Positions 17,348 to 28,420 of a stretch of DNA of 64,000 nucleotides are shown here, in pieces. Each line of letters opens with the position of its first letter. Within the stretch, counting starts at the first letter, position 1. The notes beneath the pieces were generated by a model. That model ran no database searches, had not been told where the DNA came from, and saw only the letters and a program-made list of their open reading frames with translations. Location of the stretch: the NCBI GenBank assembly GCA_041653795.1, contig JBAZER010000004.1, positions 8,493 to 72,492 on the forward strand, in the 5' to 3' direction. The position numbers were made by a program, and so were the translations under genes. This DNA is from Candidatus Omnitrophota bacterium (lineage in GTDB: Bacteria > Omnitrophota > Omnitrophia > Omnitrophales > Aquincolibacteriaceae).

Positions 17348-17824
17348 TTAGAAGACCAACCCCATCACGAGAAGCCCCAGCCCGATCGCGGCAGAGCTCA
17401 ACACCACCACACGGAACGCGAGCGGCTCCGCGAGAAGCGCCGTCAGGAACTCCCGGGACTTCTTGTAAAAGAAGACAAGCGGCACGACCTTGATCAGGCC
17501 GAGGCTGACCACCAGCGTCACCACAAAGTTTTCCATGCTCGCGGCCCTCGCCACGAGTTTTGTTTCTTGATGGTTGGCGAGGACCGCCCCAATTTCAGAT
17601 TCTCTGAAATTGATAAGTATTGGGACGGCCTTCGCCAATTCCATCCAGGTCCATAAAACAAGGGCTAACACCAGCGCCCCAGCGATCAGCAACCAGCGTG
17701 GTCGCTCTTCCGGATAAAGCTTCGCGATGAGCCGCTTCAGACCTTCCACAGAAAAAACGGCCCACACGCCTCCAAGGACCATCCCCGCGCCCAACACGAT
17801 ACTCAAAATTTTAAAGTAATTCAT
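17348..17824 (-). CDS. hypothetical membrane protein containing an in-frame family B repeat
   Basis: 158 aa with about 4 hydrophobic helices. The segment AVPILINFRESEIGAVL is encoded by the repeat at 17587-17626. ATGA overlap with the upstream small ORF. Confidence 0.5.
   Translation of the reverse strand: MNYFKILSIVLGAGMVLGGVWAVFSVEGLKRLIAKLYPEERPRWLLIAGALVLALVLWTWMELAKAVPILINFRESEIGAVLANHQETKLVARAASMENFVVTLVVSLGLIKVVPLVFFYKKSREFLTALLAEPLAFRVVVLSSAAIGLGLLVMGLVF
17587..17626. repeat. family B hairpin unit inside a CDS
   Basis: CCCCAATTTCAGATTCTCTGAAATTGATAAGTATTGGGAC. Confidence 0.7.
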
Positions 17825-18024
17825 CGATCCATCCTCTCATCAGTCTTCGGTTTCCTGTTTGCAGCCTGTTTTTTTCGCCCTTCAATGATCAGCGCTACGC
17901 CGGCCAGAAAAAACGAGAGGAACCCCAGAAATGAAAAGACGATGCTGGGCAGGGTCCCCACCCAGAACGCGCAGAGGATCAGCGTTAACCCGGGGAGAAA
18001 ATATTTCCAAAGATAATTTTTCAT
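17821..18024 (-). CDS. small two-TM membrane protein (copy 1)
   Basis: ORF 17821..18042; MKNYLWKYFLPGLTLILCAFWVGTLPSIVFSFLGFLSFFLAGVALIIEGRKK. A paralog lies at 21258-21440. Confidence 0.5.
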   Translation of the reverse strand: MKNYLWKYFLPGLTLILCAFWVGTLPSIVFSFLGFLSFFLAGVALIIEGRKKQAANRKPKTDERMDR

Positions 18025-18027
18025 AAT

Positions 18028-18100
18028 CTCAATACCTTTCAATTTTTACGAAGCGGTCCCAATTCCAATCAATCGAAGCGGAACAGAGATTGGGGCTGCC
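18028..18100. repeat. tandem family B units
   Basis: CTCAATACCTTTCAATTTTTACGAAGCG + GTCCCAATTCCAATCAATCGAAGCGGAACAGAGATTGGGGC; same two-unit arrangement as 37559-37646. Confidence 0.65.
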
Positions 18101-18170
18101 CTGATTACCATTCCGGAAACATTCTCGCAGAATCGATGAAGAGTGAAAAATAAAAAAGGGTCACACCTAT

Positions 18171-18248
18171 TTATTCCCTTACCCTTACCGCATATTCTTT
18201 CTCGAGTAAATGGTTGTTAAGGTAGACCTGTTTTCCGGATTTGTCGCT
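18171..18248 (-). pseudogene. 3' remnant of a SNase-type nuclease gene (last ~25 codons)
   Basis: Hand translation RSDKSGKQVYLNNHLLEKEYAVRVRE* versus the C-termini VDKTGKQIYLNNLLLEKGYAVRVRD* (19790 gene) and ECYLNNLLLEKGYAVKVRN* (22123 gene). It abuts the Fic stop codon. Confidence 0.55.
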
Positions 18249-19422
18249 ACGTGTTTGCTTCCGGGCCCGTGAACCGGTACCGGGTTGAGCGGCCGGAACC
18301 TTCGGCTGTAAGAAGCCCGAGCTTCATCAAATGAATGAAATCCTTGCGGGCGGTCTCGTCGGAGCAGTGGTTCAACTTGCAATATTTCCGGGTCGTGATC
18401 CATTCCCCGCTTTTCATCATCCACCGTAATGCCTTGATGTGTTTTTTGTCCAATCTTGCCCATGTATTCTGCCCGAGCACTTGTTTGATATCTTTGATCT
18501 TCCCCTCTTTTTCGAGCTGGGATTTGACCCGGACAAGCTGGTCTCTCAAGGCTTCCAGGTAGTAGAGGACAAAATAGGTCGCGTCATAGCCATGTTCTTC
18601 GGCCGCCTGGATGGACTTGTAGTAAGCGACCTTGTGATGCTCGAAATAGTCCGAGGGCGCGAGAAGGTTGATGAAACCATACCCCTGTTTTTCAAGATAG
18701 AGGTTGGAAAGGGCCCTGGCACTCCGTCCGTTCCCATCATCAAAGGGATGGACATGAACGAAGTAAAGATGCACAAGGGCGGCATTCACAAGCGGATGGA
18801 TCCCCGTCTCGCGATTCATCCATTCTATAAAGCGGTCCATCATGCCCGGGACTTCCAGCGCCGGGGGCCCTTCGTAAACAGCCCGGCCGTGTCCGTCCAC
18901 AACATAGATGGGGCCTTTGCGATACTGGCCGACCGTAATAGGACGATCCTTGTGGGTGTTGTAGACCAGGATCTTGTGCAGTCCATGGATTCTCTCATGA
19001 GTAAAAGGATCCGCTTTATGCTTGTGCATGAATTCCAGGGCAAGTTTGTTGTTGTAGATCATCTGCATGCTTTCATCCGCGAAATCTTTTTTCTTCCGGT
19101 CCATGTTGCGAAGCGCCGCTTCCAGAGAGGTGACAGCCCCCTCGATGCGGCTCGAATAATAGGCTTCCTGCTTGAGAGCGCTCCTGGAAAGCGCCGAGAC
19201 AGAAACGGGGGAAAGTTTGAGGGATGAGAGAAATCCCTTATCCTGAGAGATCGCGGAAATAAGGGAAAGGACCTCCGGGACCAGAACCATCCAAAAGGGT
19301 TTTCCATTCTTTGCGGGCAAGCCGACGGCTTGGGCTTTTTTAGCTCTTTCTTTTCCGAAAGCCATCCACGCCTTTTCGCCTAGAGCCCCTATAGCTTGTG
19401 ATCTTGTCAGATAAGCGTTCAT
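18247..19422 (-). CDS. Fic-family protein (class II, intramolecular inhibitory motif) with C-terminal wHTH
   Basis: 391 aa; Fic motif HPFDDGNGRSARAL (HxFx[DE]GNGRxxR); N-terminal SSRIEG matches the [ST]xxxE[GN] inhibitory helix. Confidence 0.85.
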   Translation of the reverse strand: MNAYLTRSQAIGALGEKAWMAFGKERAKKAQAVGLPAKNGKPFWMVLVPEVLSLISAISQDKGFLSSLKLSPVSVSALSRSALKQEAYYSSRIEGAVTSLEAALRNMDRKKKDFADESMQMIYNNKLALEFMHKHKADPFTHERIHGLHKILVYNTHKDRPITVGQYRKGPIYVVDGHGRAVYEGPPALEVPGMMDRFIEWMNRETGIHPLVNAALVHLYFVHVHPFDDGNGRSARALSNLYLEKQGYGFINLLAPSDYFEHHKVAYYKSIQAAEEHGYDATYFVLYYLEALRDQLVRVKSQLEKEGKIKDIKQVLGQNTWARLDKKHIKALRWMMKSGEWITTRKYCKLNHCSDETARKDFIHLMKLGLLTAEGSGRSTRYRFTGPEANT

Positions 19423-19789
19423 TTTGAGATCCCTATAATCGTACTTGCCTTAGAGGGCAAGCACGATAAAGTCGGAGCCCACGGTCAGCTCTGCACTTTA
19501 TCGCAAAGTTAATCGCCAACTATTCGCCAATTATTGTACCCGGCCTTTGGCGATTTGTCCAACCGGTATTATTCCCGTACTCTGACCGCACTTGCTCCCA
19601 GTGAGCAAGTACCATCGCGTACTGGCTATCATTAAAAGATCCATCGAAAGCCAGTACAGCACTGATTTCCAATAATTTTAGATGTGAATCAGGCGTCGCT
19701 CGTTAATGTCAGCCCTGGCTCTTTTTCAAACATTGAAGGTAGCCAGGACAGTCCAAACTACCTTTTAAAAAATGAAAAACAAAGTTTGG
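19423..19789. repeat. 367-bp intergenic stretch made of hairpin modules
   Basis: GTACTTGCCTTAGAGGGCAAGCAC, GCACTTGCTCCCAGTGAGCAAGTAC (cf. CACTTGCGCCAGTGCGCAAGTG at 22079-22100), and AGTACAGCACTGATTTCCAATAATTTTAGATGTGAATCAGGCGTCGC (cf. 16795-16850). Confidence 0.5.
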
Positions 19790-20509
19790 TCAGTCGCGTA
19801 CGCGAACGGCATATCCTTTTTCCAGCAACAGGTTGTTAAGGTAGATCTGTTTTCCGGTTTTATCTACATAAAAGACGTCGCCAAGATAGCGGCCCCATTT
19901 TTCTTTTCTTTGGGTGCGGGCGGATTTCAGAATAATGGACTCGCAATGGGCAAGTTCGCGCTCGACGAAACGCTTGGCAGCCCGGCCTTCTCCGCCCTGA
20001 ATCGTTCTTCGATTCAAGGACGGATCCGCCTTCTTTGTGGCGGAGTCCCCACTAAACTCGGGACAATCAATCCCCTTCAAACGGATGGTTTCATGCTTCT
20101 GGTCGTCAAAACCGGTGTCGATCTCGAAGTCACGCGAGGACCATTCCCCTTTCGCGGCCTTGTCCTCCAATGCGAGGCGCTTCTTCTCATCCGGCACCGT
20201 GATCAGTGCCCGGTAATGTGCCCAAGTCAACTTTGGCCGCGCGGCCAAAGTCGGGAATTTCTCGGCAAATCTCATGCAACGATAGAAGACCGTTTCTCCG
20301 AATCCAAGATCTTTCGCAAGATTGGCGACGATCTTTTTACCGTGTTCCTGATTCGGATTCTCAGACCTTTGGAGGTATTCATTAATAAGCCGGCCGGTCT
20401 CCCAGTAAGTACGGACTTTGGCTTCTTCTATTCTTTGTCGGCCGAGAAGAAGGGTTTCCTCAACCTTCTTGCGGAGCGCGGCATAGGTAGCGACGGAGAC
20501 GGTGTTCAT
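19790..20509 (-). CDS. DUF1016 N-terminal domain fused to a truncated staphylococcal-nuclease (SNase) domain
   Basis: ORF 19790..20671; ATG at 20509 gives an ATGA overlap with the methyltransferase stop. YWETGRLINEYL...LAKDLGFGETVFYRCMRFAEKFP (YhcG-like N-domain); IRLKGIDCPE and GRYLGDVFY..YLNNLLLEKGYAV (SNase motifs). Confidence 0.7.
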   Translation of the reverse strand: MNTVSVATYAALRKKVEETLLLGRQRIEEAKVRTYWETGRLINEYLQRSENPNQEHGKKIVANLAKDLGFGETVFYRCMRFAEKFPTLAARPKLTWAHYRALITVPDEKKRLALEDKAAKGEWSSRDFEIDTGFDDQKHETIRLKGIDCPEFSGDSATKKADPSLNRRTIQGGEGRAAKRFVERELAHCESIILKSARTQRKEKWGRYLGDVFYVDKTGKQIYLNNLLLEKGYAVRVRD

Positions 20510-21081
20510 TTTTCTCTTTTGCAGGTTAGGACAATCCCGTAATGGTACGGTTTTAGATCGTAAAGTTCCGGCGAAACGAATCCAGCGCTCTCGGCCCACC
20601 GGATGCAATCTTCGGGCTTGGGACGGATATCTATGGAAGGCCCTCGCGGTGTCGAAGGATCGTAGTTCCAATGAATAATGCCGAGTTTGCCATCCGGTTT
20701 TAATACCCGTTTCGCTTCTTTAAGCAGGACCAAAGGATCCTCGAGATGAAGGATATTAAAAAGCATGACATAATCGACGCGGGCATCGGGCAAACCCGAT
20801 CCTTCGGCCATGAAGTCCCGCAGCAGAACCCGAACGTTATGGATCCCCTGCTTTTTCGCCTCTTGATCCGTGATCCGGATCATTTCGGGCTCGATATCCA
20901 AAGCGTAGATCTGTCCGCGAATGATCTTGGCAGCGGCCAAGGTGAATGTTCCGTATCCGCACCCGAATTCGACCACATCACGGGTTTGTCCGTTGATCCC
21001 CAGGGTCATGATGACGCGATGCGGATCGAAAAAGTTCTCCCATGTCCCGCGATCCGGCATTCCGCTTTCTCTGGTTTTCAT
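20506..21081 (-). CDS. class I SAM-dependent methyltransferase
   Basis: 191 aa; VVEFGCGYGTFTL motif I; LKPDGKLGIIHW post-motif region. Looks like a small-molecule type, with no DNA-MTase motifs. Confidence 0.8.
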   Translation of the reverse strand: MKTRESGMPDRGTWENFFDPHRVIMTLGINGQTRDVVEFGCGYGTFTLAAAKIIRGQIYALDIEPEMIRITDQEAKKQGIHNVRVLLRDFMAEGSGLPDARVDYVMLFNILHLEDPLVLLKEAKRVLKPDGKLGIIHWNYDPSTPRGPSIDIRPKPEDCIRWAESAGFVSPELYDLKPYHYGIVLTCKREK

Positions 21082-21170
21082 AGGCCCTGACTTTTATTAC
21101 ATTTCACTAATAAGGAAGTCAAGGTTGTCCTTGTCTTAGATTTGATTCCCCTAAGGGTTGGCAAGGGCTG

Positions 21171-21210
21171 CCCCAATTTCAGATTCCCTGAAATTGATAA
21201 GAATTGGGAC
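21171..21210. repeat. family B hairpin unit (part of a degenerate duplicate of 17570-17630)
   Basis: GGTTGGCAAGGGCTGCCCCAATTTCAGATTCCCTGAAATTGATAAGAATTGGGAC, about 91% identical to 17575-17626 including flanks. Confidence 0.7.
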
Positions 21211-21257
21211 TGTCACGATTTCCGCTTCCCTGTAATCCATGATAATCATGATGCCCC

Positions 21258-21440
21258 TCATCCTTTTCCTCTATCCGGAAAGCATCGTTTCCTCCCCTCA
21301 ATAATAAGCGCTACGCCGGCCAAAAAGAACGAGAGAAACCCCAGGAATGAGAAAACCATGCTGGGCAAGGTCCCCACCCAGAACGCACAACCGATGAGCG
21401 CCAACCCGGGGAGAAAATATTTCCAAAGATAATTTTTCAT
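21258..21440 (-). CDS. small two-TM membrane protein (copy 2, divergent C-terminus; possibly a pseudogene)
   Basis: MKNYLWKYFLPGLALIGCAFWVGTLPSMVFSFLGFLSFFLAGVALIIEGRKRCFPDRGKG; DNA is about 87% identical to 17881-18024 (hand alignment, 18 mismatches in 144). Confidence 0.4.
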   Translation of the reverse strand: MKNYLWKYFLPGLALIGCAFWVGTLPSMVFSFLGFLSFFLAGVALIIEGRKRCFPDRGKG

Positions 21441-21604
21441 AACCAAGGTTATTCTCGCAGAATCAATCGGCAACCGCAAGTAAGAGCGCTCCGGCGGGAA
21501 GTGTGTTTCGCCAACGTTCGCCATGATTCTCCATAGTCAAAAAATAAACGGGTAATCATGACTGTCCAAGTCGCCATTAATGAAAAGAAAATAAAGACTT
21601 GGGC

Positions 21605-21645
21605 GCCATGCCCCACCGAGGCATGGCTGAACTCGCGAGCGTCGG
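21605..21645 (+). repeat. family H hairpin (variable stem, conserved CCAsCGA loop, CTCGCG tail)
   Basis: GCCATGCC-CCACCGA-GGCATGGC-TGAACTCGCGAGCGTCGG. Confidence 0.5.
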
Positions 21646-21749
21646 CCTCGATGAGAAACCCTGGCTCTCGGCCTCCTTAGCGTGGCTTAACACACTTCCC
21701 GCCGTCACTTTATATTAGAAAAGGCGAAGGGTTGAGACGAGGCACGCTA

Positions 21750-21832
21750 GTCCCAATACCTATCAATTTTCACGAAGTGGAAATTGGGGCAATCCTTGTC
21801 ACCATTATGGAAAAGAATGAAAGACAAGGATA
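21750..21832 (+). repeat. family B composite repeat
   Basis: GTCCCAATACCTATCAATTTTCACGAAGTGGAAATTGGGGC + AATCCTTGTCACCATTATGGAAAAGAATGAAAGACAAGGAT. Confidence 0.75.
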
Positions 21833-22122
21833 GAACGACGAGCGGGCAGGGACTTCTCGAAGAGAAGGAGCGAGGAGTGGAGGGCGAACGAGGGAATCCA
21901 CGCCGGGGATTCCCGAGTGGTGACGAGGCTCAAGCCCGAAGCCTTCGCGTGGATAAAAGCTCGATATTGAAGTGGGACGGCAGGGTCGAAACATTTGGTC
22001 AGTTTCGTACGTTGTCGTACACGGAGATCCTTTGAAAGTGACGACAACGCACTGACACAAGGGTGTCAGTGTCCGGACACACTTGCGCCAGTGCGCAAGT
22101 GCGTAAAAGTCGGAATGATCTG

Positions 22123-23319
22123 TCAATTCCGTACTTTTACGGCATATCCTTTTTCTAAAAGCAGGTTATTAAGGTAGCACTCGTGCCCTGTGGCACCAGT
22201 ACCTCCGGTCGAAGCTCCGAAGCTTCGTACCGGAAGGATCTCTTGGCCGTCTATGTCCGCCACACTGCTCGGCGGATTACTTCGGCTCGCTTTCTGTGGG
22301 ACCGGGTAAAACACGTCGGCTTCGTAACGGTCGTAGGTGGCGTTCTTACTGCTCAGGACGGTGAGGGACGGGACGCCTTTCAGGACCTTTTCCACGAACT
22401 GTTTCGCCTTTTTTCCCTCCCCGGTATCGATCTCGGGGCAATCGATCCCCCGGAGCCTCAGCTTCTGGCGGCTGGCCCCTCGCATACCGGTATCCAGCAT
22501 GACCCAGAGCGTGTCCCCGTCGACCACGCTCTCGAGATAGGCCCGGTAAGTGAAAAGGTCTTGGGCCGTGCGGCCGTCCTTCACAAGTTTCGTACCGGTC
22601 CATGCGACGATGTCCCCGGCCTTCAGCCCGCGGGCTTCCGCGGACGTCAGGGCGCGGTAGCCCTTGAACCCGTGGTCCAGAAGCAGAATGTTCTTGTCAG
22701 GCCAGGGGGTTTCGTTGGGGTCCTTGATCCGGCAAGTGTTTAAAAGCCCCAGCTTCGGGACTTTGAGCAGTTCGGTGGGATTTTTCTCCTGCGAAGACGG
22801 GGACATCAAGTCCCCGCGAGCGTGCCGAAAAGACAGCTTTTCGGCTACCTGCGCACGCACGGATTCATGGCGAACCAGGGCGCGAAGATCATTCCGGGTC
22901 AGACCTTCCCGGAGGGCGCGGCGTTCCAGGGCCTTGCGTTTTTGAACATCCTGGACCGTCAGAAGTTCGATGTGATGGGCCCAGGGCAATTCGCGCGCGG
23001 GCGCGCGTTTCCGGTTTTCCAGATAAAACTGGCGCATCCGCCGGAGGCTCGCAACGGAAAATCCCGATCCCAGGTTTTCGGTAAGTTCTGCGGAAAATTT
23101 GTGGATGCGGCCGGCGCCGTAAGCGGCGCGGGGTTCGCCGTCCTGTTCGATCTCCACGACGTATTGACCGGTCTTCCAGTAGGCCGTGGCGAGAGAGTGG
23201 CGGGCGGTATTGAAAAGCCGGATGACGTCGGCAACGATCTCTTTGTACCGGCTGGGCGTCAATTTGTTCGTCACGGCGAACCTCCCGTTCCTTCGCGGAT
23301 CCTTACAGGTGCGGGACAA
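22123..23319 (-). CDS. DUF1016 N-terminal domain fused to a full staphylococcal-nuclease (SNase) domain
   Basis: 398 aa; YWKTGQYVVEIEQ...FSVASLRRMRQFYLE (YhcG-like N-domain); VVDGDTLWV, LRLRGIDCPE, YDRYEADVFY, YLNNLLLEKGYAV (SNase OB-fold motifs). Confidence 0.7.
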   Translation of the reverse strand: MSRTCKDPRRNGRFAVTNKLTPSRYKEIVADVIRLFNTARHSLATAYWKTGQYVVEIEQDGEPRAAYGAGRIHKFSAELTENLGSGFSVASLRRMRQFYLENRKRAPARELPWAHHIELLTVQDVQKRKALERRALREGLTRNDLRALVRHESVRAQVAEKLSFRHARGDLMSPSSQEKNPTELLKVPKLGLLNTCRIKDPNETPWPDKNILLLDHGFKGYRALTSAEARGLKAGDIVAWTGTKLVKDGRTAQDLFTYRAYLESVVDGDTLWVMLDTGMRGASRQKLRLRGIDCPEIDTGEGKKAKQFVEKVLKGVPSLTVLSSKNATYDRYEADVFYPVPQKASRSNPPSSVADIDGQEILPVRSFGASTGGTGATGHECYLNNLLLEKGYAVKVRN

Positions 23320-23354
23320 AAATCAACCTCTCTCTGAGGACAATGTCCGGGTTA

Positions 23355-23756
23355 CTATTTTCTTTCTTCCGCCCGTTTAAGGACCTTCCGGACAAAAACG
23401 AGATATTCCCCGGATTCTTTTTCACTGATCAGCTCCCCCGCGCCGTAAAGGTCCTGATTGCGTTTCATTCTCATAGAATTTCCGAAAACCAGAATATCCG
23501 AATCCGCCAGGATCTCGCTCATCCGCTCGAGGATCTTCACGTGGTGCCCCGGGAGGCTGCGTACCTTCCGGCCTTCCTGCGCGCACAGAGCCATGCCGGT
23601 TTTGATCAGGGCTTGAAAGGCGTAGGTAAAACGAACCTCCGGAAAGGGATCTTTTTCCGCGATCTCAAGATCACGATGCGCGTTCCGGAAACGCTGGCGG
23701 ATCTCTTCTGCGGCGAACTTGAAAGGTTGGAAAAATTCCCTCTCCGCGGCCGTCAT
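23355..23756 (-). CDS. HEPN-domain protein (putative toxin partner of the upstream nucleotidyltransferase)
   Basis: 133 aa all-helical; RMKRNQDLY resembles the HEPN R-x4-6-H motif with Tyr in place of His; ATGA overlap with the MNT gene. Confidence 0.55.
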   Translation of the reverse strand: MTAAEREFFQPFKFAAEEIRQRFRNAHRDLEIAEKDPFPEVRFTYAFQALIKTGMALCAQEGRKVRSLPGHHVKILERMSEILADSDILVFGNSMRMKRNQDLYGAGELISEKESGEYLVFVRKVLKRAEERK

Positions 23757-24295
23757 ACCAACCGGACCTTTTTCTTTTTCGCGAGGGACTTGAAGAAGGG
23801 GTCTTTCTTGAGCTTTTCGTGATATTCCCGCGGGTCCGCGCTGATCACATTGATCTCGCGATCCGTCTCTTTTTGGAACGTCGCGACCGCTTTCTGAAGC
23901 GCGAGAGTGTCATGCCCGCCGATGACAAGAAGGTCGATATCGCTCGCGGCATCCATTTTTCCGCTGGCATAAGAACCGAAGATAAAGGCCTGCTCGATCC
24001 CGGGGATGCCCGAAAGCGCGTCCCGGAGCTTTTGCTCAAGACCGATCGTTTTGAGAACGATCCCCTTGTATTCTTTAAGGAGCGGGTAATCCCGGTTCAG
24101 GGAGTAATAAGAGGCGCCCCCGCGCTCGCAACATTTCAGGACCCCTTCCCGCTCAAGCTCTTTGAGCTTGCGGGAAAGGTTCCCGTCATCCAGCGAAAAT
24201 TTACGGGCCATTTCGCTGACGTAAAGCTCGGCATCCTCATGCAGGAACATATAACCCAGGATGGCTTTTGTGTGTTTGGAACGCATGCTGATCAT
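23753..24295 (-). CDS. wHTH + minimal nucleotidyltransferase (MNT) domain protein
   Basis: 180 aa; FIFGSYASGKMDAASDIDLLVIG (GSxxxG...DxD of the Pol-beta NTase fold); N-terminal wHTH ELYVSEMARKFSLDDGNLSRKLKELEREG. Confidence 0.75.
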   Translation of the reverse strand: MISMRSKHTKAILGYMFLHEDAELYVSEMARKFSLDDGNLSRKLKELEREGVLKCCERGGASYYSLNRDYPLLKEYKGIVLKTIGLEQKLRDALSGIPGIEQAFIFGSYASGKMDAASDIDLLVIGGHDTLALQKAVATFQKETDREINVISADPREYHEKLKKDPFFKSLAKKKKVRLV

Positions 24296-24307
24296 CGGAG
24301 CATCCTT

Positions 24308-24347
24308 CCCTGTAGTTAATTACAGGGAATACTGTAACTTAGTACAG
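24308..24347. promoter_or_regulatory. candidate operator: tandem inverted repeats upstream of the wHTH-MNT gene
   Basis: CCCTGTA-gttaat-TACAGGG (24308-24327) followed by ACTGTA-acttag-TACAGG (24331-24348), 13 nt upstream of the ATG at 24295. Confidence 0.35.
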
Positions 24348-24401
24348 GGGGCTTGTCAAGCCCGGCTCACAGAGCGAAGGCGGGGTACTGTTCTACAAAT
24401 C

Positions 24402-24671
24402 TCATAGGGCGGCAAGGCGCTTCTTCGCGGCGTCCCCGCTTGCGTAGACCGCGCCCTTTTCGCAGACCATTTTTTCGATTTTCCCCCACTCCTTGGGAGT
24501 ATAGGGAGACTGCACAGTCACTTGACACGGCAGGATCATAATCCCGTCCTTCGTCACGCCGAACGCGACGGCGGACCCCTTCTGCAAACCGAGGATCTTA
24601 CGAACGCTGTTGGGTATGGTCACCTGTCCTTTGGATGTCATCTTCGTCGTTTCAATGATCGTCATCGGCAC
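24402..24671 (-). CDS. AbrB/MazE/SpoVT-family DNA-binding protein (antitoxin-like)
   Basis: 89 aa; SKGQVTIPNSVRKILGLQKGSAVAF swapped-hairpin motif. Confidence 0.7.
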   Translation of the reverse strand: MPMTIIETTKMTSKGQVTIPNSVRKILGLQKGSAVAFGVTKDGIMILPCQVTVQSPYTPKEWGKIEKMVCEKGAVYASGDAAKKRLAAL

Positions 24672-24850
24672 GGCTCCTTGTCAGAATAGCGTTAGGTATT
24701 ACTTCCTTACTTCCCAACCAGGAGGATAACGGCTCAAGAAAGGAAAGTCAAGCGCGGGCCATCTGTTGGGCTATGGGCTTTGATCGGACGGGAGCCCCTC
24801 ACCCCCGCTTGTCCGCCAAAGCTTTGTGTTAAATGGTACCAGGAGCCTTT

Positions 24851-26449
24851 CTATGCATCAAAAGGCTTTAAACTAACTCTGGCCTTGATAGCATCACATT
24901 CTCGCATATAACAATCTTCAAAAATTTCTGATATCTTTTTCTCGTATTTCTCCTTGTCGTCTTTTGGCACTTGGTATAAAACAGCATCGTGCATGGGCAG
25001 TAAAAAATCCGCATCTCCCAGAGAAGAATCTACTGCCAGGATTGCCCTTTTCAAAATTAGAGATGCTGTACCCTGGATGCGTTGGCTTATAACCCATTTC
25101 TCCTCATTTGCCGAGAGCGTTTCCTTCGTCGAAGGCCGATAACGATAGTTGCCATTGCGCGTACCAATCCTGCCTTCTCTGAGAAGAGCATCACACAGCT
25201 TTTTTTTCCACTCGTTAATTTGTTTAAACTGATCAAAAAAATTATCAACAGCCGCTTGAACGGCAGCCTGATTTTGCCCTGTTGATTCAAATATCATCTT
25301 AACGAGATTTTCTTTTTTCATGCCAAATGAAAAAGAAAGAAATATTTTTTTTGCTATATCCCGATTGGCTTTTTCTCCCAGAATAGCCTTCCCTAAAGCT
25401 GTATACACATCTCCAGAATTATATAAATTGATTAACGCTTTATCTTTTGCATCGTCGGCAAGAATTCCGGGTTCGAATTGGCTAAAATCTGGATATATTA
25501 ATATTTTCTCTCTGTCTGAAGCTATGATGTCACGATTTTCTCGTTTTAGTTGCTGCAAGTGAGGATCGGTGACTGTGGCTCTTCCGGTTACTGTTCCTAG
25601 TGAATCGTAATATGGAAAAACCCTGTTTGACCCTATCGCTCCAAATCTCAAAAGAATGCCTTTATCCCTCTCGGCTTTTTTGACTCGTTGAAAATGGAAC
25701 AAAAGATCAATTTTCGCCTCATAGAGACTAGCTAAGTCATCAAAAATATCCGTAAAAACACATTTGGCAAGGTAATCGTAACCGTTATCTTTCAGAGATT
25801 TAGCCAACGTCTTTTTGTCAGAAACATCGATGATGCCCCATTGGTCTCTCAGCTGTTCATTGGATAAACGGGTCTGCTCATCAAGAATATCCAACCGCCT
25901 CAACAATCGCTTTGTGTTAATTCTAATTCCTCGATATTGGCTTCTAAGCATGATGCGCTGGACTGGGTTTTCTATGCTGTAAAATCTATCCTTCTCACCT
26001 TTTATCTCAAGCTGGTCGTTCATATGTTGCCATACGTTAATCAAAGATGAGGATAGCTGCCCCAATAATCTGCTTATCTCTAGTACGCCGATATTCGTTT
26101 CACCTTTAAGGCAAATCCGTTTCAACAGATCAAAATCTTTCTCGATCTTGAAGTATGGCTTGATCAATTGCCAAATACTCCATGGAGCCTCTCTCTTTTT
26201 GTCTTCATACGGTTGGCCAACGACGAGCCGAGCCGCCAGACAAACATCTATAATTTTTATCGGAAAATCTGTTTTTATATTTTTAAAATATGGAATAAGC
26301 CGATTTAATTCATATGAAATTATTTCGGTTTTAATTCTACTGAGGTCTTTCGCATCCACAATCTGCGGAGGATGGCCCTGCTTTCCTAGAAAAAGAATGG
26401 GAGGAACTTCTATGTTGAATGGGTCTAAAACATAACTTAAGAAGAACAT
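24851..26449 (-). CDS. family A (Pol I-like) DNA polymerase domain protein, no nuclease domains recognised
   Basis: 532 aa. TVTGRATVTDPHLQQL (cf. TxTGRLSSxxPNLQN). ILIYPDFSQFEPGILA (motif A, cf. DYSQIELR). RDIAKKIFLSFSFGM (motif B, cf. RRxAKxxNFGxxYG). QGTASLILK (cf. QGTAADIIK). LLPMHDAVLYQVPKDD (motif C, cf. QVHDELVFEVHKDD, Glu to Ala). The ATG lies 2 nt after the RT stop. Confidence 0.8.
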   Translation of the reverse strand: MFFLSYVLDPFNIEVPPILFLGKQGHPPQIVDAKDLSRIKTEIISYELNRLIPYFKNIKTDFPIKIIDVCLAARLVVGQPYEDKKREAPWSIWQLIKPYFKIEKDFDLLKRICLKGETNIGVLEISRLLGQLSSSLINVWQHMNDQLEIKGEKDRFYSIENPVQRIMLRSQYRGIRINTKRLLRRLDILDEQTRLSNEQLRDQWGIIDVSDKKTLAKSLKDNGYDYLAKCVFTDIFDDLASLYEAKIDLLFHFQRVKKAERDKGILLRFGAIGSNRVFPYYDSLGTVTGRATVTDPHLQQLKRENRDIIASDREKILIYPDFSQFEPGILADDAKDKALINLYNSGDVYTALGKAILGEKANRDIAKKIFLSFSFGMKKENLVKMIFESTGQNQAAVQAAVDNFFDQFKQINEWKKKLCDALLREGRIGTRNGNYRYRPSTKETLSANEEKWVISQRIQGTASLILKRAILAVDSSLGDADFLLPMHDAVLYQVPKDDKEKYEKKISEIFEDCYMRECDAIKARVSLKPFDA

Positions 26450-26451
26450 GA

Positions 26452-28095
26452 TTAATTGTCGTATTCTGGAAGATCTCGATACAATTCAGTAATATTAATT
26501 GGCTCTAATGGAATAAAGTAATTCCCCCTCAAAGAAGCATCTTGCAATGCCCTGTAAGTGCCCCTTATGTCCGCTCTTACAAATGGTTGAACTTTATCTC
26601 TAATGTGTGGCGCATAGGGGAGCTCGTGTATAGCAATCATGCCGTTTCTTTGGGTGATATAATGTTTTAATTTTTTAAATCGCTTTGCCAAATAAACTCT
26701 ATCCTCCGCACTACCACAAGCACCCAGATACAACAATGCTCCAGACAATAAGGGCACGGATTTCGTTCCCTTAACAATCTGCTTCGCGAGGTTTATTAAT
26801 TTAGTATTGGAATATTTGTGCGCCACGAACAACTGCCACAAGAGATAACTTTGCCAGCTATAAATGTTCTTTTCTCGGTCAAGCATAATCTTCACTAACT
26901 CTTTTAAATTTTTTGGGGTTAGATCCACAGACTTCAAATATCTTATAAAACTGTCACTAGAACATGGCTGTTCAGACAACTGACGGATTACAGATCGCGT
27001 GATTTTTTTAAAATCAAATCCTCGCTTTGCTTCTTTGCAAAGCGCAATCTTTTCGAGTCTGTGTATGCAAAATCTAAATTCTCTTGCTTGCGTTTTCTTC
27101 GCCCTAATTAATTCTAATGCATATGCTTTCAACAAAGGAAAACTCTGTTGCACGGTGCTCCGCCTATGCGACTTAAATAGTTGATCTATTTGTTCAACTT
27201 TTCTATTTGGTTTCCTTATATAGTTTTCGATTTCCTTTGTGTTTTGGTGAAGGATGAGAGTCTTTTGCGCATTTACATTCAAGCCTATTTTTCTAAGTTC
27301 AATTATTACTTCCTTAAGAATTTTTCGGGCGCTATATTTCGAATCGCACACTATGCGCATATCGTCTGCATACCGAACATACTTATAGCCTTTGCTTACC
27401 ATAGCCTTATCAACTCTGTGCATTAAAACATTTGCTAAAAAAGAAGATGCATCCCTGTTTTGAGGAATTCCATGCTTTTTGTATGGCGTCCAAGCTCTTA
27501 GTAGTCGGGAAATGATTTCGACTGTTTTCTGAATTCGTCGAACCTGCGTTTTTCCTAAGCAAAGGTTAGGCAATTCATCAATTAATGCTTTTTGAATATC
27601 GCTGATTCTAATATTCTCATAAAAATTTTGGATGTCGGAAACCAATAAAACATCCGTCTTTTTTCGAAGTTTTGTTTTCGCAGCATCCTCAAATTTAGTC
27701 CACTGACTAGGCGCGTTCAGAAACATATATTTATTTTTTGGCTTTTTTGTCCACCTGTGGCTAAAAACCGATGGTGAAAGCAATTTATCATAAAAGCGTA
27801 TCAGATAGTTCGCCGCCCCATGGTACAAGAGCCTGTCATGAATTGTCGTTTCCAAAGAGTATCGTAAGGTGAAACCCTTTTTGGGAATATTGTATTGCTC
27901 TGACTTTGCAGGGAAATACTTCAATTGCGGCTTCTTGTTATGTTTCATAAAATGGCCAAGAATTTTATCGGCCCGCAATGCATCTCCATAAATAAGCGTG
28001 TCCGGAAACCAATCATCTTTTAAATCGCACTTCATTTGCTTGACCAATACATCTATATTGAACGGAATGCCTTCTATTGTTATTGAGCGGTTCAT
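26452..28095 (-). CDS. reverse transcriptase (non-LTR prokaryotic type, Abi/UG-like) with a helical C-terminal domain
   Basis: 547 aa. IPKKGFTLRYSLETTIHDRLLY (RT1/2), LVSDIQNFYENI (RT3/A), GIPQNRDASSFLANVLM (RT4/B), YVRYADDMRIVC (RT5/C, YADD), LNVNAQKT (RT6/7). About 250 aa of helical repeats follow the palm. Confidence 0.85.
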   Translation of the reverse strand: MNRSITIEGIPFNIDVLVKQMKCDLKDDWFPDTLIYGDALRADKILGHFMKHNKKPQLKYFPAKSEQYNIPKKGFTLRYSLETTIHDRLLYHGAANYLIRFYDKLLSPSVFSHRWTKKPKNKYMFLNAPSQWTKFEDAAKTKLRKKTDVLLVSDIQNFYENIRISDIQKALIDELPNLCLGKTQVRRIQKTVEIISRLLRAWTPYKKHGIPQNRDASSFLANVLMHRVDKAMVSKGYKYVRYADDMRIVCDSKYSARKILKEVIIELRKIGLNVNAQKTLILHQNTKEIENYIRKPNRKVEQIDQLFKSHRRSTVQQSFPLLKAYALELIRAKKTQAREFRFCIHRLEKIALCKEAKRGFDFKKITRSVIRQLSEQPCSSDSFIRYLKSVDLTPKNLKELVKIMLDREKNIYSWQSYLLWQLFVAHKYSNTKLINLAKQIVKGTKSVPLLSGALLYLGACGSAEDRVYLAKRFKKLKHYITQRNGMIAIHELPYAPHIRDKVQPFVRADIRGTYRALQDASLRGNYFIPLEPINITELYRDLPEYDN

Positions 28096-28195
28096 GGTTA
28101 TCTATGGTTTCCTAAATTAACCTATTAGCTTAATTCGAAAAAACTCCAGAGATTTATTGCTTGATTCTATTCCCTCACCAGTAGAACCGGCATAT

Positions 28196-28345
28196 TTACC
28201 ACGGTATTTTGATCCCCGCCTCAATCGCGGTCTCCTTCATGGATTCACGGAAGCGGACAAAGGTCTTGGCGTTCCCTTCAAAGAGGTCCTTGGTGAGGAC
28301 GACTTCCACGCCCAACGGGTCCCCTTCCTTGCTCGTCAGGTTCAT
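28196..28345 (-). CDS. 49-aa hypothetical ORF between the promoter-like module and the RT gene
   Basis: Below the ORF-track cutoff. Hand translation MNLTSKEGDPLGVEVVLTKDLFEGNAKTFVRFRESMKETAIEAGIKIPW*. No Shine-Dalgarno seen. Confidence 0.25.
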   Translation of the reverse strand: MNLTSKEGDPLGVEVVLTKDLFEGNAKTFVRFRESMKETAIEAGIKIPW

Positions 28346-28382: not shown

Positions 28383-28420
28383 ATTCTCGCAGAATCGATC
28401 GCCCACCGCAAGCAGGACGG
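28383..28420 (-). promoter_or_regulatory. conserved promoter-like module TTGCGG-N17-GAGAAT with the ATTCTcgcAGAAT palindrome (copy 3)
   Basis: Minus strand: TTGCGG (28411-28406), 17 nt, GAGAAT (28388-28383). The same module is at 21451-21486; the palindrome alone is at 18121-18137. Confidence 0.35.

Follow-up and report, generated by a model that had tools for sequence, protein, structure and literature searches.

What is a DNA polymerase gene of the Pol I type doing directly behind a reverse transcriptase (RT) gene in a Candidatus Omnitrophota bacterium, and does its product work together with the RT? The two genes lie on the minus strand of the window, the 64,000-nucleotide stretch of contig JBAZER010000004.1 that we analyzed, and they make up a 3.35-kb cassette (positions 24,851 to 28,195) with a GC content of 38.4% against 52 to 54% in the flanks. 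The polymerase gene (24,851 to 26,449, minus strand) encodes a protein of 532 amino acids (aa) from an ATG start, which we call PolA; the RT gene (26,452 to 28,095, minus strand) encodes 547 aa. Our analysis identifies PolA as the DNA polymerase subunit of a two-gene, horizontally acquired UG9 system. The RT-PolA pairing has been known since 2008, when Kojima and Kanehisa described it as retroelement “group D,” and UG9-small with PolA is “cluster 58” of Mestre et al. (2022). The pairing is therefore already described, under the names UG9 and RTasPolA, and the window copy is a new, divergent member of it; its nearest PolA relative is 45% identical and its nearest RT relative 53%. In the literature that we searched, we found no experimental study of UG9 or of its PolA. 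DRT11 was considered as a candidate for UG9 and rejected, as DRT11 is UG5.

PolA is a family A DNA polymerase. Pfam DNA_pol_A (PF00476) matched it at 2.9e-32 (112.5 bits against a gathering threshold of 34.3), and the PADLOC model RTasPolA (PDLC03816) matched it at 1.9e-130 (434 bits), with residues 25 to 530 aligned to profile positions 21 to 474 of 475. The start codon that gives 532 aa is backed by homologues spanning 99 to 100% of the query and by how the gene is called on other contigs, and both proteins have the size expected of their families (median lengths, 530 aa for PolA and 547 aa for the RT).

Could PolA be an ordinary polymerase of housekeeping, repair or phage replication that came to lie beside an RT gene by chance? 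Its fold and motifs are those of family A in general, but the scores, the linkage to the RT and the phylogeny all contradict this explanation, which we regard as scarcely credible. PolA reached 104 bits against the NCBIfam Pol I equivalog NF004397 (cutoff, 720) and 92 bits against TIGR00593 (cutoff, 600), no Pfam match to a 5' nuclease domain was obtained on the 532-aa protein, and conserved DEDD residues are missing. These are not the properties of a Pol I orthologue (PolA1), and the preliminary description, which had held that the gene is no housekeeping Pol I and has no 5' nuclease domain, was right on both counts. PolA does not resemble a phage replicative polymerase either. The best match among 50,697 phage records was only 25 to 28% identical and none spanned 80% of the query, while 2.9 million viral contigs yielded only three relatives, two of them with the same His-Asp-Ala (HDA) motif and an RT gene upstream and the third a different, HDS-type polymerase; in the window, PolA adjoins an RT, not replication genes. 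In a neighbor-joining tree built on Poisson distances with only five outgroups, which were drawn from Pol I and phage PolA, the RT-linked PolAs were monophyletic in 100 of 100 bootstraps.

Is the linkage to the RT a property of this genome or of the family? At 74 of the 75 GTDB loci whose upstream sequence was long enough, an RT gene lay directly upstream of PolA on the same strand, and the pairing recurred on two plasmids and on two IMG/VR contigs. The RT stop codon of the window copy lies 2 nt ahead of the PolA ATG, a spacing found at 8 of 64 loci (the window included), and a spacing of -8 nt was found at 31 of them. PolA is translationally coupled to the RT. The two proteins co-evolve: pairwise distances among the RTs followed those among the PolAs (Mantel r, 0.885; reached by none of 999 permutations). 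Taken with the tree and with the lack of a close phage relative, this linkage bears out the distinct RT-linked clade that had been anticipated.

What kind of RT is the partner? RVT_1 was its sole Pfam domain (1.7e-15), and PADLOC RT_UG9_small matched it at 3.1e-171, with residues 5 to 546 aligned to profile positions 3 to 541 of 541; the RT_UG9_large profile aligned only from its position 235 onward. Both window proteins match the UG9-small models (RT_UG9_small and RTasPolA) end to end, and the window is also like UG9-small in gene order, coupling, lengths and absence of MBL or protease partners (PMC9226505): it has neither an MBL-fold hydrolase gene upstream of the RT nor an N-terminal protease on the RT, as in the small variant. 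The AlphaFold2 model of the RT (pLDDT, 93.8) consists of helices only between about residues 298 and 500, and its best Foldseek matches were DRT6, DRT4/UG15, AbiK, Abi-P2 and AbiA. By this C-terminal alpha-helical repeat domain and its intact YxDD motif, the RT belongs to Class 1 of the UG/Abi RTs. The motif itself reads YADD (27,361 to 27,372, minus strand), whereas most UG9 members have YMDD or YVDD, and the residues D154, D244 and D245 are invariant.

The closest solved structures, those of DRT4 (UG15), DRT6 (UG12), AbiK, Abi-P2 and AbiA, belong to alpha-repeat Class 1 enzymes that make single-stranded DNA (ssDNA) by protein-primed, untemplated synthesis, as described for the Class 1 RTs DRT4 and DRT6 (PMC12783706). 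These enzymes differ from the UG9 RT in that they are single genes or have non-polymerase partners, and the core of the UG9 RT is nearer to templated RTs. Its RT-domain sequence matched Cas6-RT-Cas1 at 1.4e-22 and group II intron RTs at about 1e-20, compared with 6e-15 for DRT4 and 1.6e-8 for AbiK. Because of this closeness in sequence, the first strand may also be RNA templated. Conservation and the DRT4 alignment, which covers only RT residues 151 to 284 and so provides no counterpart of DRT4 Tyr125, gave no assignment of a priming tyrosine; Y412 is the only invariant noncatalytic tyrosine, and Y123 is 91% conserved.

Does PolA keep the residues that DNA synthesis requires? Alignments made with phmmer against Klenow and with hhalign against Salmonella Pol I reproduced exactly the motif alignment that had earlier been drawn by eye. 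In motif A (25,472 to 25,489, minus strand), ypDFSQFEpg aligns with aDYSQIELR of Klenow, so that the catalytic Asp321 corresponds to D705 and the steric-gate Glu326 to E710. Motif B, the O-helix (25,319 to 25,363, minus strand), pairs RDIAKKIFLSFSFGM with RRSAKAINFGLIYGM and thereby R363 with R754, K367 with K758 and F375 with Y766, and L371 stands at the position of F762. In motif C (24,983 to 24,991, minus strand; aligned to Klenow, Bst, Taq and Salmonella Pol I), MHDAVLYQVPKDD pairs with VHDELVFEVHKDD; His487 is followed by Asp488 at the position of Klenow D882 and by Ala489 at that of E883, which gives HDA for the canonical HDE. In a sample consisting of the query and 108 homologues, D321, E326 and K367 were invariant (109/109 each), as were H487 and D488 (108/108) and likewise the O-helix residue R363, and the residues at the Klenow R668 and Q849 positions were invariant or nearly so. 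Since the mean pairwise identity of the PolA family is only about 29%, the invariance of the catalytic residues points to selection for catalysis. Judged from these alignments, PolA retains all residues needed for templated dNTP polymerization on a base-paired 3' end. By the nucleotide pocket, the family carries several fixed changes (in Klenow positions, I709 to Phe, L711 to Pro, R712 to Gly and F762 to Leu). The replacement of Tyr by Phe in motif B, also pointed out beforehand, is correct for the window copy, but it does not describe the family, in which position 375 is Tyr in 99 members and Phe in 6; the window has the minority state.

Is the change from HDE to HDA a private mutation of the window copy? 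Position 489 was Ala in 107 family members, Gly in 1 and Glu in none. Over 80 GTDB loci, motif C read HDA in 71, HDG in 5 and HDE in none; the count over the 108 homologues is the less biased of the two, because one of the three patterns used in the locus search included PMHDA. Klenow, Bst, Taq, the Salmonella and Fusobacterium Pol I enzymes and two phage PolAs keep HDE, in contrast to the window PolA, and motif C of the outgroup polymerases was HDE or HDS. HDA is no alignment artifact, since phmmer and hhalign both arrived at the alignment made by eye, and the substitution first noted in the window copy is real. By these counts, HDA is a family signature and no private mutation, and Ala489 is held by purifying selection rather than reached by drift. 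HDA is a deviation within the family A superfamily, and it gives no reason to exclude PolA from it. We take Klenow E883, the counterpart of A489, to be one of the three active-site carboxylates, among which it is usually counted, and the wording “altered active-site second shell” in the preliminary description is therefore not apt. Loss of this carboxylate strongly lowers kcat in Klenow. The activity of PolA may consequently be slow or need a different metal.

What precedes the polymerase domain? The part of PolA that aligns by sequence with Klenow, Bst and Pol I begins at residue 125 to 145, so that about 125 to 140 aa lie ahead of the polymerase domain, rather than the ~250 aa first estimated. 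The AlphaFold2 model of PolA (pLDDT, 95.5) had its best Foldseek matches in Pol theta, Klenow and the Bst large fragment (E, ~1e-22; TMq, 0.8), and it aligned end to end with the Klenow and Bst large fragments (TMq, 0.81 to 0.83; 577 to 604 columns). On the strength of this end-to-end structural alignment, the N-terminal ~125 aa (26,075 to 26,449, minus strand), which are folded in the model as beta-beta-beta-alpha-beta-alpha-beta-alpha, appear to be a vestigial exonuclease-like domain, reduced and catalytically dead, and the original term “polymerase core only” does not fit the model. The assignment draws on the predicted fold because detection by sequence failed in three ways: Pfam gave no exonuclease match on the whole PolA, the N-terminal 144 aa taken from 10 members gave none even at E ≤ 10, and when the family profile was compared by hhalign with full-length Salmonella Pol I, only residues 138 to 520 aligned. 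The only near-invariant acidic residue within positions 1 to 150 is D68. Without DEDD residues, PolA is predicted to be proofreading deficient, in line with the earlier remark that exonuclease motifs are absent. In sum, palm, fingers and thumb are complete, the N-terminal domain is exonuclease-like and dead, and the 5' nuclease is absent. The large fragments of Bst and Taq, Pol theta and PolA2/APEX, an exonuclease-dead family A polymerase of actinobacteria (PMC12926913), likewise combine this fold with a retained, inactive exonuclease-like domain. None of them is RT linked, and the N-terminal domain of the UG9 PolA is smaller than theirs and undetectable by sequence. We found no mention of the HDA signature or of the vestigial exonuclease fold in the accessible UG9 literature. 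The preliminary description had named three outcomes that would speak against it (an intact exonuclease, an artifactual HDA and a grouping with phage replicative polymerases), and we observed none of them.

In what surroundings does the cassette occur, and how does it move? Its upstream low-GC edge is an AT-rich 5' flank of about 100 nt (28,096 to 28,195, minus strand), presumed to hold the promoter and 5' untranslated region; at about 28,180 to 28,200, the GC fraction falls from values of 0.50–0.58 outside to values of 0.28–0.38 inside. In other genomes, cassettes of 3.3 to 3.4 kb, a size that the window cassette matches, are 88 to 97% identical between Bacteroidota and Gammaproteobacteria and have sharp edges, and the near-identical copies have only ~70 to 95 nt in common upstream of the RT. 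Two copies within a single Pedobacter genome (L067 and L069) are 100% identical. The duplicated region there measures at least 7.3 kb and runs far past the cassette, which indicates that a larger element was copied. Rfam at gathering thresholds had no match to a noncoding RNA (ncRNA) in the whole window. In a set of 65 loci, the 150 nt that precede the RT held no common k-mer beyond A/T-rich words, and the nearest 100 nt showed no uniform sign of folding (mean z, -0.33; z of the window copy, -1.1). Scans for promoter and terminator consensus sequences did no better than shuffles, terminal repeats and target-site duplications were sought around the window cassette with only short, chance-level repeats as a result, and Pfam and PADLOC detected no integrase or endonuclease domain in the RT or PolA. 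The cassette has TA/defense genes as its neighborhood, namely, SoFic, two DUF1016/PDC-S02 genes, an MNT/HEPN-like PDC-M05A/B pair and a MazE-like antitoxin. On the basis of such TA/defense-type neighbors, UG9 is a predicted, candidate anti-phage defense system; UG9 has been found enriched in defense islands (PMC9226505).

What, then, would PolA do for the RT? The preliminary description had put forward a cDNA second strand, untemplated extension or low-fidelity synthesis as possible tasks. The best explanation overall, to which we give somewhat better than even chances on the analogy with other defense RTs, is that PolA is the UG9 polymerase subunit that copies RT-made DNA into a second strand. 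The RT would make the first DNA strand, probably protein primed and possibly untemplated if it behaves as its closest structural relatives do. PolA would then use this strand as the template for the complementary strand, without proofreading, as DRT7 and DRT3 suggest by analogy, and the product, DNA that is wholly or partly double-stranded, would act in anti-phage defense. A primase fused to the RT of DRT7/UG10 makes the second strand on the RT product as template (10.64898/2026.02.16.706125), and the complementary strands of DRT3 come from two polymerases (PMC13174585). UG9 is like DRT7, which yields double-stranded DNA (dsDNA), in that an alpha-repeat RT of Class 1 is accompanied by a second nucleotide polymerase, and it is like DRT3 (UG3 plus UG8) in encoding two polymerases side by side; the likeness is one of architecture only. 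The second polymerase of DRT7 is an archaeo-eukaryotic primase that is fused and starts de novo, whereas the UG9 PolA is separate, belongs to family A and needs a primer. Both DRT3 enzymes are RTs and use an ncRNA template, whereas no ncRNA was detected in the window. A family A polymerase needs a 3'-OH primer and cannot start de novo. The DRT7 analogy hence leaves priming unexplained, since the DRT7 primase can start de novo, and we infer, purely from this requirement, that the primer for PolA would have to be supplied either by the first strand folding back on itself or by another nucleic acid that anneals to it.

Going further, and only tentatively, UG9 might represent a third, independent route to a second strand for a defense RT, next to the primase of DRT7 and the second RT of DRT3, with an active site retuned throughout the clade and PolA as a new subclass of family A. 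The retuned positions would be the equivalents of E883 (to Ala), I709 (to Phe) and F762 (to Leu), the fixed HDA being an adaptation, and the retuning would permit copying of a protein-linked, possibly untemplated strand, for example, by fold-back self-priming of the kind used by Pol theta.

Other roles for PolA can be weighed against second-strand synthesis. PolA might be an effector that acts on phage or host DNA and not on the RT product, for example, by extending RT-made DNA that has annealed to intermediates of phage replication or by aberrant synthesis, of low fidelity or with strand displacement, that would poison replication or use up dNTPs. An intact polymerase site next to a dead exonuclease and altered nucleotide-pocket residues would suit such an enzyme, and effector genes adjoin the RT in other UG/Abi systems (PMC9226505). 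Coupling to the RT and co-evolution, however, fit a physical complex with one product at least equally well, and the precedents of DRT7 and DRT3 favor second-strand synthesis on the RT product; we consider the effector role unlikely. If PolA were a scaffold or sensor subunit that the change from Glu to Ala had inactivated and that was kept only for binding DNA or the RT, the absence of the third active-site carboxylate in every member would be explained. Such a protein would hardly be expected to preserve in (nearly) invariant form the two Asp residues that bind metal, the Glu of the steric gate, Arg and Lys of the O-helix and the R668 and Q849 equivalents, or to have Ala489 itself under purifying selection, and we judge this explanation highly improbable.

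The original framing as retroelement “group D” corresponds to yet another reading, in which the 3.3-kb unit is a selfish, mobile retroelement whose RT copies RNA (for example, the cassette transcript) and whose PolA makes the second strand. The RT does keep the canonical motifs of fingers and palm, its best scores are against templated RTs, and the sharp-edged cassettes shared between phyla, the identical Pedobacter copies and the foreign composition of the window cassette all speak of mobility. Against selfish transposition stand the lack of terminal repeats or a target-site duplication at the window cassette and of an integrase or endonuclease domain in either protein. No Rfam family matched, the 100 nt ahead of the RT hold neither a conserved motif nor a conserved structure, the flank that travels with the genes is very short, the Pedobacter duplication extends beyond the cassette, and UG9 is enriched in defense islands (PMC9226505). 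A selfish retroelement is thus a distinctly unlikely explanation, and second-strand synthesis by PolA on the RT product is the one that we retain.

These results bear on how the gene is named and on where its biology can be approached. The window gene should be annotated as an RT-associated (UG9) DNA polymerase and not as polA; UG9 has been catalogued since 2008 and is present in defense-finder databases. Because the compact, ~3.3-kb cassette has no room for a large ncRNA, the possible templates are narrowed. The invariant Ala at the position of the third active-site carboxylate offers one experimental handle, and the retained, dead exonuclease-like domain, which may dock the RT, offers another. 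Some defense RT systems, such as DRT7 and DRT3, need two polymerases to make dsDNA. UG9 is the obvious next case, and it is the only one of these two-polymerase cases with a Pol I-type enzyme.

The polymerase gene lies at positions 24851..26449, as the preliminary description had placed it, with the strand now corrected to minus; it begins with ATG and encodes 532 aa. Pfam DNA_pol_A matches residues 248-513 (2.9e-32). A phmmer search of PDB sequences aligned residues 145-515 to the Klenow fragment and reproduced all three motif matches previously made by eye: DFSQFE versus DYSQIE in motif A, RDIAKKIFLSFSFGM versus RRSAKAINFGLIYGM in the second motif, and MHDAVLYQVPKDD versus VHDELVFEVHKDD in the third. 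The register was the same when hhalign compared the family profile with full-length Salmonella Pol I. Since the two methods agree, the change of motif C from HDE to HDA is real and not an alignment artefact.

How widespread is this substitution? A protein search returned at least 197 relatives, nearly all of 530-550 aa and none more than 45% identical to the window polymerase. When the query and 108 of these relatives were aligned, 109/109 sequences kept the Asp of motif A, the Glu of the steric gate, and the Lys of the O-helix, and 108/108 kept the His and Asp of motif C. The residue that follows this His-Asp was Ala in 107 sequences, Gly in one, and Glu in none. Among 80 loci from GTDB species genomes, we counted 71 HDA, 5 HDG, and no HDE; PMHDA stood in one of the three patterns that located these loci, which makes the protein search the less biased source of counts. 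Thus, the third active-site carboxylate (Klenow E883) is replaced clade-wide. HDE is present in Klenow, Bst, Taq, Salmonella Pol I, Fusobacterium Pol I, and two phage polymerases, which are all the ordinary family A enzymes compared. An 882-aa viral polymerase (L086 3462-6107, IMGVR_UViG_3300042923_001310) carries HDS; it is not related to the clade of RT-linked enzymes, and no RT lies close by. Further fixed differences by the nucleotide pocket are Phe at Klenow I709, Pro-Gly at L711-R712, and Leu at F762. The Phe noted earlier in place of Tyr at Klenow Y766 is present, but the window protein shares it with only a few relatives (Y 99, F 6).

We then asked about the N-terminal region. Alignments of the polymerase domain to Klenow, Bst, and Pol I begin at residue 125-145, leaving only ∼125 residues ahead of it and not the ∼250 that had been thought unexplained. 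The AlphaFold2 model, built from 106 family sequences (pLDDT 95.5, pTM 0.94), orders residues 1-120 as beta-beta-beta-alpha-beta-alpha-beta-alpha. Foldseek aligned the entire chain end to end with the Klenow and Bst large fragments (TMq 0.81-0.83; 577-604 columns against target lengths of 580-605 residues), so the N-terminal domain must overlay their exonuclease domain. No exonuclease signal was found there by sequence with Pfam, with N-terminal fragments of family members, or with hhalign against Salmonella Pol I, and D68 is the sole near-invariant acidic residue within positions 1-150. On the basis of the predicted fold, the absent sequence signal, and this lone acidic residue, the domain is modeled as a reduced, catalytically dead exonuclease-like fold, like the dead domains of Bst, Taq, and Pol theta. 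The enzyme is therefore not a polymerase core only, as first described, although the proposed lack of proofreading holds: no intact exonuclease was found.

PADLOC identified the polymerase as RTasPolA (1.9e-130) and its immediate, co-oriented upstream neighbor (26452..28095, 547 aa) as RT_UG9_small (3.1e-171), the latter end to end. Only 2 nt separate the RT stop codon from the polymerase ATG, and the 3.35-kb block has a GC content of 38.4% against 52-54% in the region. The gene is almost certainly the polymerase of a UG9 RT-PolA system. Of the 75 GTDB loci whose upstream sequence is long enough, 74 carry a relative of the window RT just ahead of the polymerase gene and in the same orientation. 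In the sole exception (L059 145-3653, Flavobacterium sp. DG1-102-2), the family member is a 494-aa open frame (DNA_pol_A 1.8e-26) with no RT upstream; the upstream ORF encodes a Rep_1-type rolling-circle replication protein (6.5e-12). In 31/64 loci the end of the RT gene overlaps the beginning of the polymerase gene by 8 nt, and in most of the rest the two are only a few nucleotides apart. We also found the pair on two IMG/VR contigs and on two plasmids, pDSHI01 of Dinoroseobacter shibae and one from Paraburkholderia, where the genes are annotated "RNA-directed DNA polymerase" and "DNA polymerase." RT distances and polymerase distances, taken pair by pair, are strongly correlated (Mantel r 0.885, reached by 0/999 permutations). 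In a neighbor-joining tree with a small outgroup sample (two bacterial Pol I and three phage polymerases), the 69 RT-linked polymerases formed a single clade in 100/100 bootstraps. Among 50,697 phage records there was no close relative; the best reached 25-28% identity, none covering 80% of the query. The clade is thus distinct from ordinary phage replicative polymerases. The NCBIfam Pol I equivalogs scored 104 bits (cutoff 720) and 92 bits (cutoff 600), and the explanation that this is an ordinary polymerase is effectively excluded.

In the window, the cassette adjoins a cluster of toxin-antitoxin and defense-type genes (17800-24700), all on the minus strand: a SoFic-like Fic protein (18247-19422), two DUF1016/PDC-S02 proteins, one with an SNase domain (19790-20671 and 22123-23319), a methyltransferase (20506-21081), an MNT/HEPN-like HTH-nucleotidyltransferase and small partner resembling PDC-M05A/B (23753-24295 and 23355-23756), and a MazE/AbrB-like antitoxin without an obvious toxin (24402-24671). 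Farther out are ordinary chromosomal genes, with ATP synthase on one side and a pseudouridine synthase and radical SAM enzyme on the other. A GC-rich open frame of ∼50 codons (28196-28345, minus strand; MNLTSKEGDPLGVEVV...IKIPW*) ends at the upstream low-GC edge and may be a host-gene remnant cut short by cassette insertion. Two independent metagenome contigs (Logan SRR18595300 and ENA ERZ27247363) are 100% identical to the window over both genes, and both stop at 28410-28411, ∼315 nt upstream of the RT, which suggests an assembly break from strain variation or a repeat.

Elsewhere, cassettes of ∼3.3-3.8 kb share 88-97% DNA identity between genomes that are assigned to different phyla (L065 777-4092 and L068 4098-7412; L078 and L081; L066 325-4097 and L077 3689-7460), pairing Pedobacter and Algoriphagus MAGs with Saccharospirillum, Marinospirillum, Vreelandella, and Pseudomonas. 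Either the bare cassette was transferred horizontally very recently or MAG contigs were mis-binned. Where near-identical cassettes sit in unrelated genomes, their common flanks are short, only ∼70-95 nt ahead of the RT gene and ∼70 nt past the end of the polymerase gene. In the Algoriphagus/Pseudomonas subfamily, ∼380 nt upstream are conserved between both genomes, compared to 70-95 nt in other subfamilies, and the RT ORF (L066 707-2548) has 613 aa with an N-terminal extension of ∼65 aa. Pedobacter sp. SYSU D00535 carries two copies (L067 and L069, scaffolds 2 and 1) that do not differ (100% identity) along a stretch of 7,353 nt or more; as this exceeds the cassette, a larger cassette-bearing element appears to have been duplicated.

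The RT has a YADD catalytic motif with D154, D244, and D245 invariant in the family, and in its model (pLDDT 93.8) the RT domain leads into a repeat domain that is all-helical. The nearest solved structures are DRT6, DRT4/UG15, AbiK, Abi-P2, and AbiA, which make untemplated, protein-primed ssDNA (DRT4, DRT6: PMC12783706). By sequence profile, the core (residues 38-286) is closest to Cas6-RT-Cas1 (1.4e-22) and group II intron RTs (∼1e-20), ahead of DRT4 (6e-15) and AbiK (1.6e-8); the order by predicted fold is the reverse because of the alpha-repeat domain. Given these core matches, a templated reaction is possible. An Rfam scan of the window matched no RNA partner, and the region upstream of the RT in 65 loci had no conserved motif or folding signal. 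The short flanks shared by near-identical cassettes pointed to no such RNA either.

Together, these data establish that this family A polymerase is obligately coupled to the RT and co-evolves with it, has a dead exonuclease domain, and retains an intact site for templated dNTP addition at a paired 3' end. The first proposal, of a specialized, RT-linked, non-proofreading enzyme, was correct in direction. What might it synthesize? The polymerase would make the strand complementary to the RT product. A family A polymerase requires a 3'-OH, so a first-strand fold-back or an annealed nucleic acid would be needed, and priming is the weak point of second-strand synthesis. This reading, to which we give somewhat less than an even chance, draws on two precedents: in DRT7/UG10, protein-primed poly(dT) made by a Class 1 RT is copied into dsDNA by a primase fused to that RT (10.64898/2026.02.16.706125), and in DRT3, a Class 1 RT and a Class 2 RT produce complementary strands (PMC13174585). 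Rival explanations are that the cassette is a selfish retroelement, that the polymerase is an effector acting on phage DNA, and that it is an inactivated scaffold subunit.

Simon and Zimmerly (PMC2602772) and Mestre et al. 2022 (PMC9226505) restate the link between this RT lineage and a family A polymerase, which Kojima and Kanehisa reported in 2008 ("group D"). Mestre et al. placed UG9 in Class 1 of the UG/Abi RTs, assigned 60 of 79 members to the small variant, the type of the window copy, and predicted a defense role from island enrichment (PMC9226505). DRT numbering goes up to 11, with DRT11 corresponding to UG5. We found no characterization of UG9 or its polymerase in papers or preprints. 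Nor did we see an earlier report of the HDA signature shared by the whole family or of the vestigial exonuclease fold; both are useful details and may be new. The window polymerase is a new, rather divergent member of the named but experimentally unexplored UG9 system.
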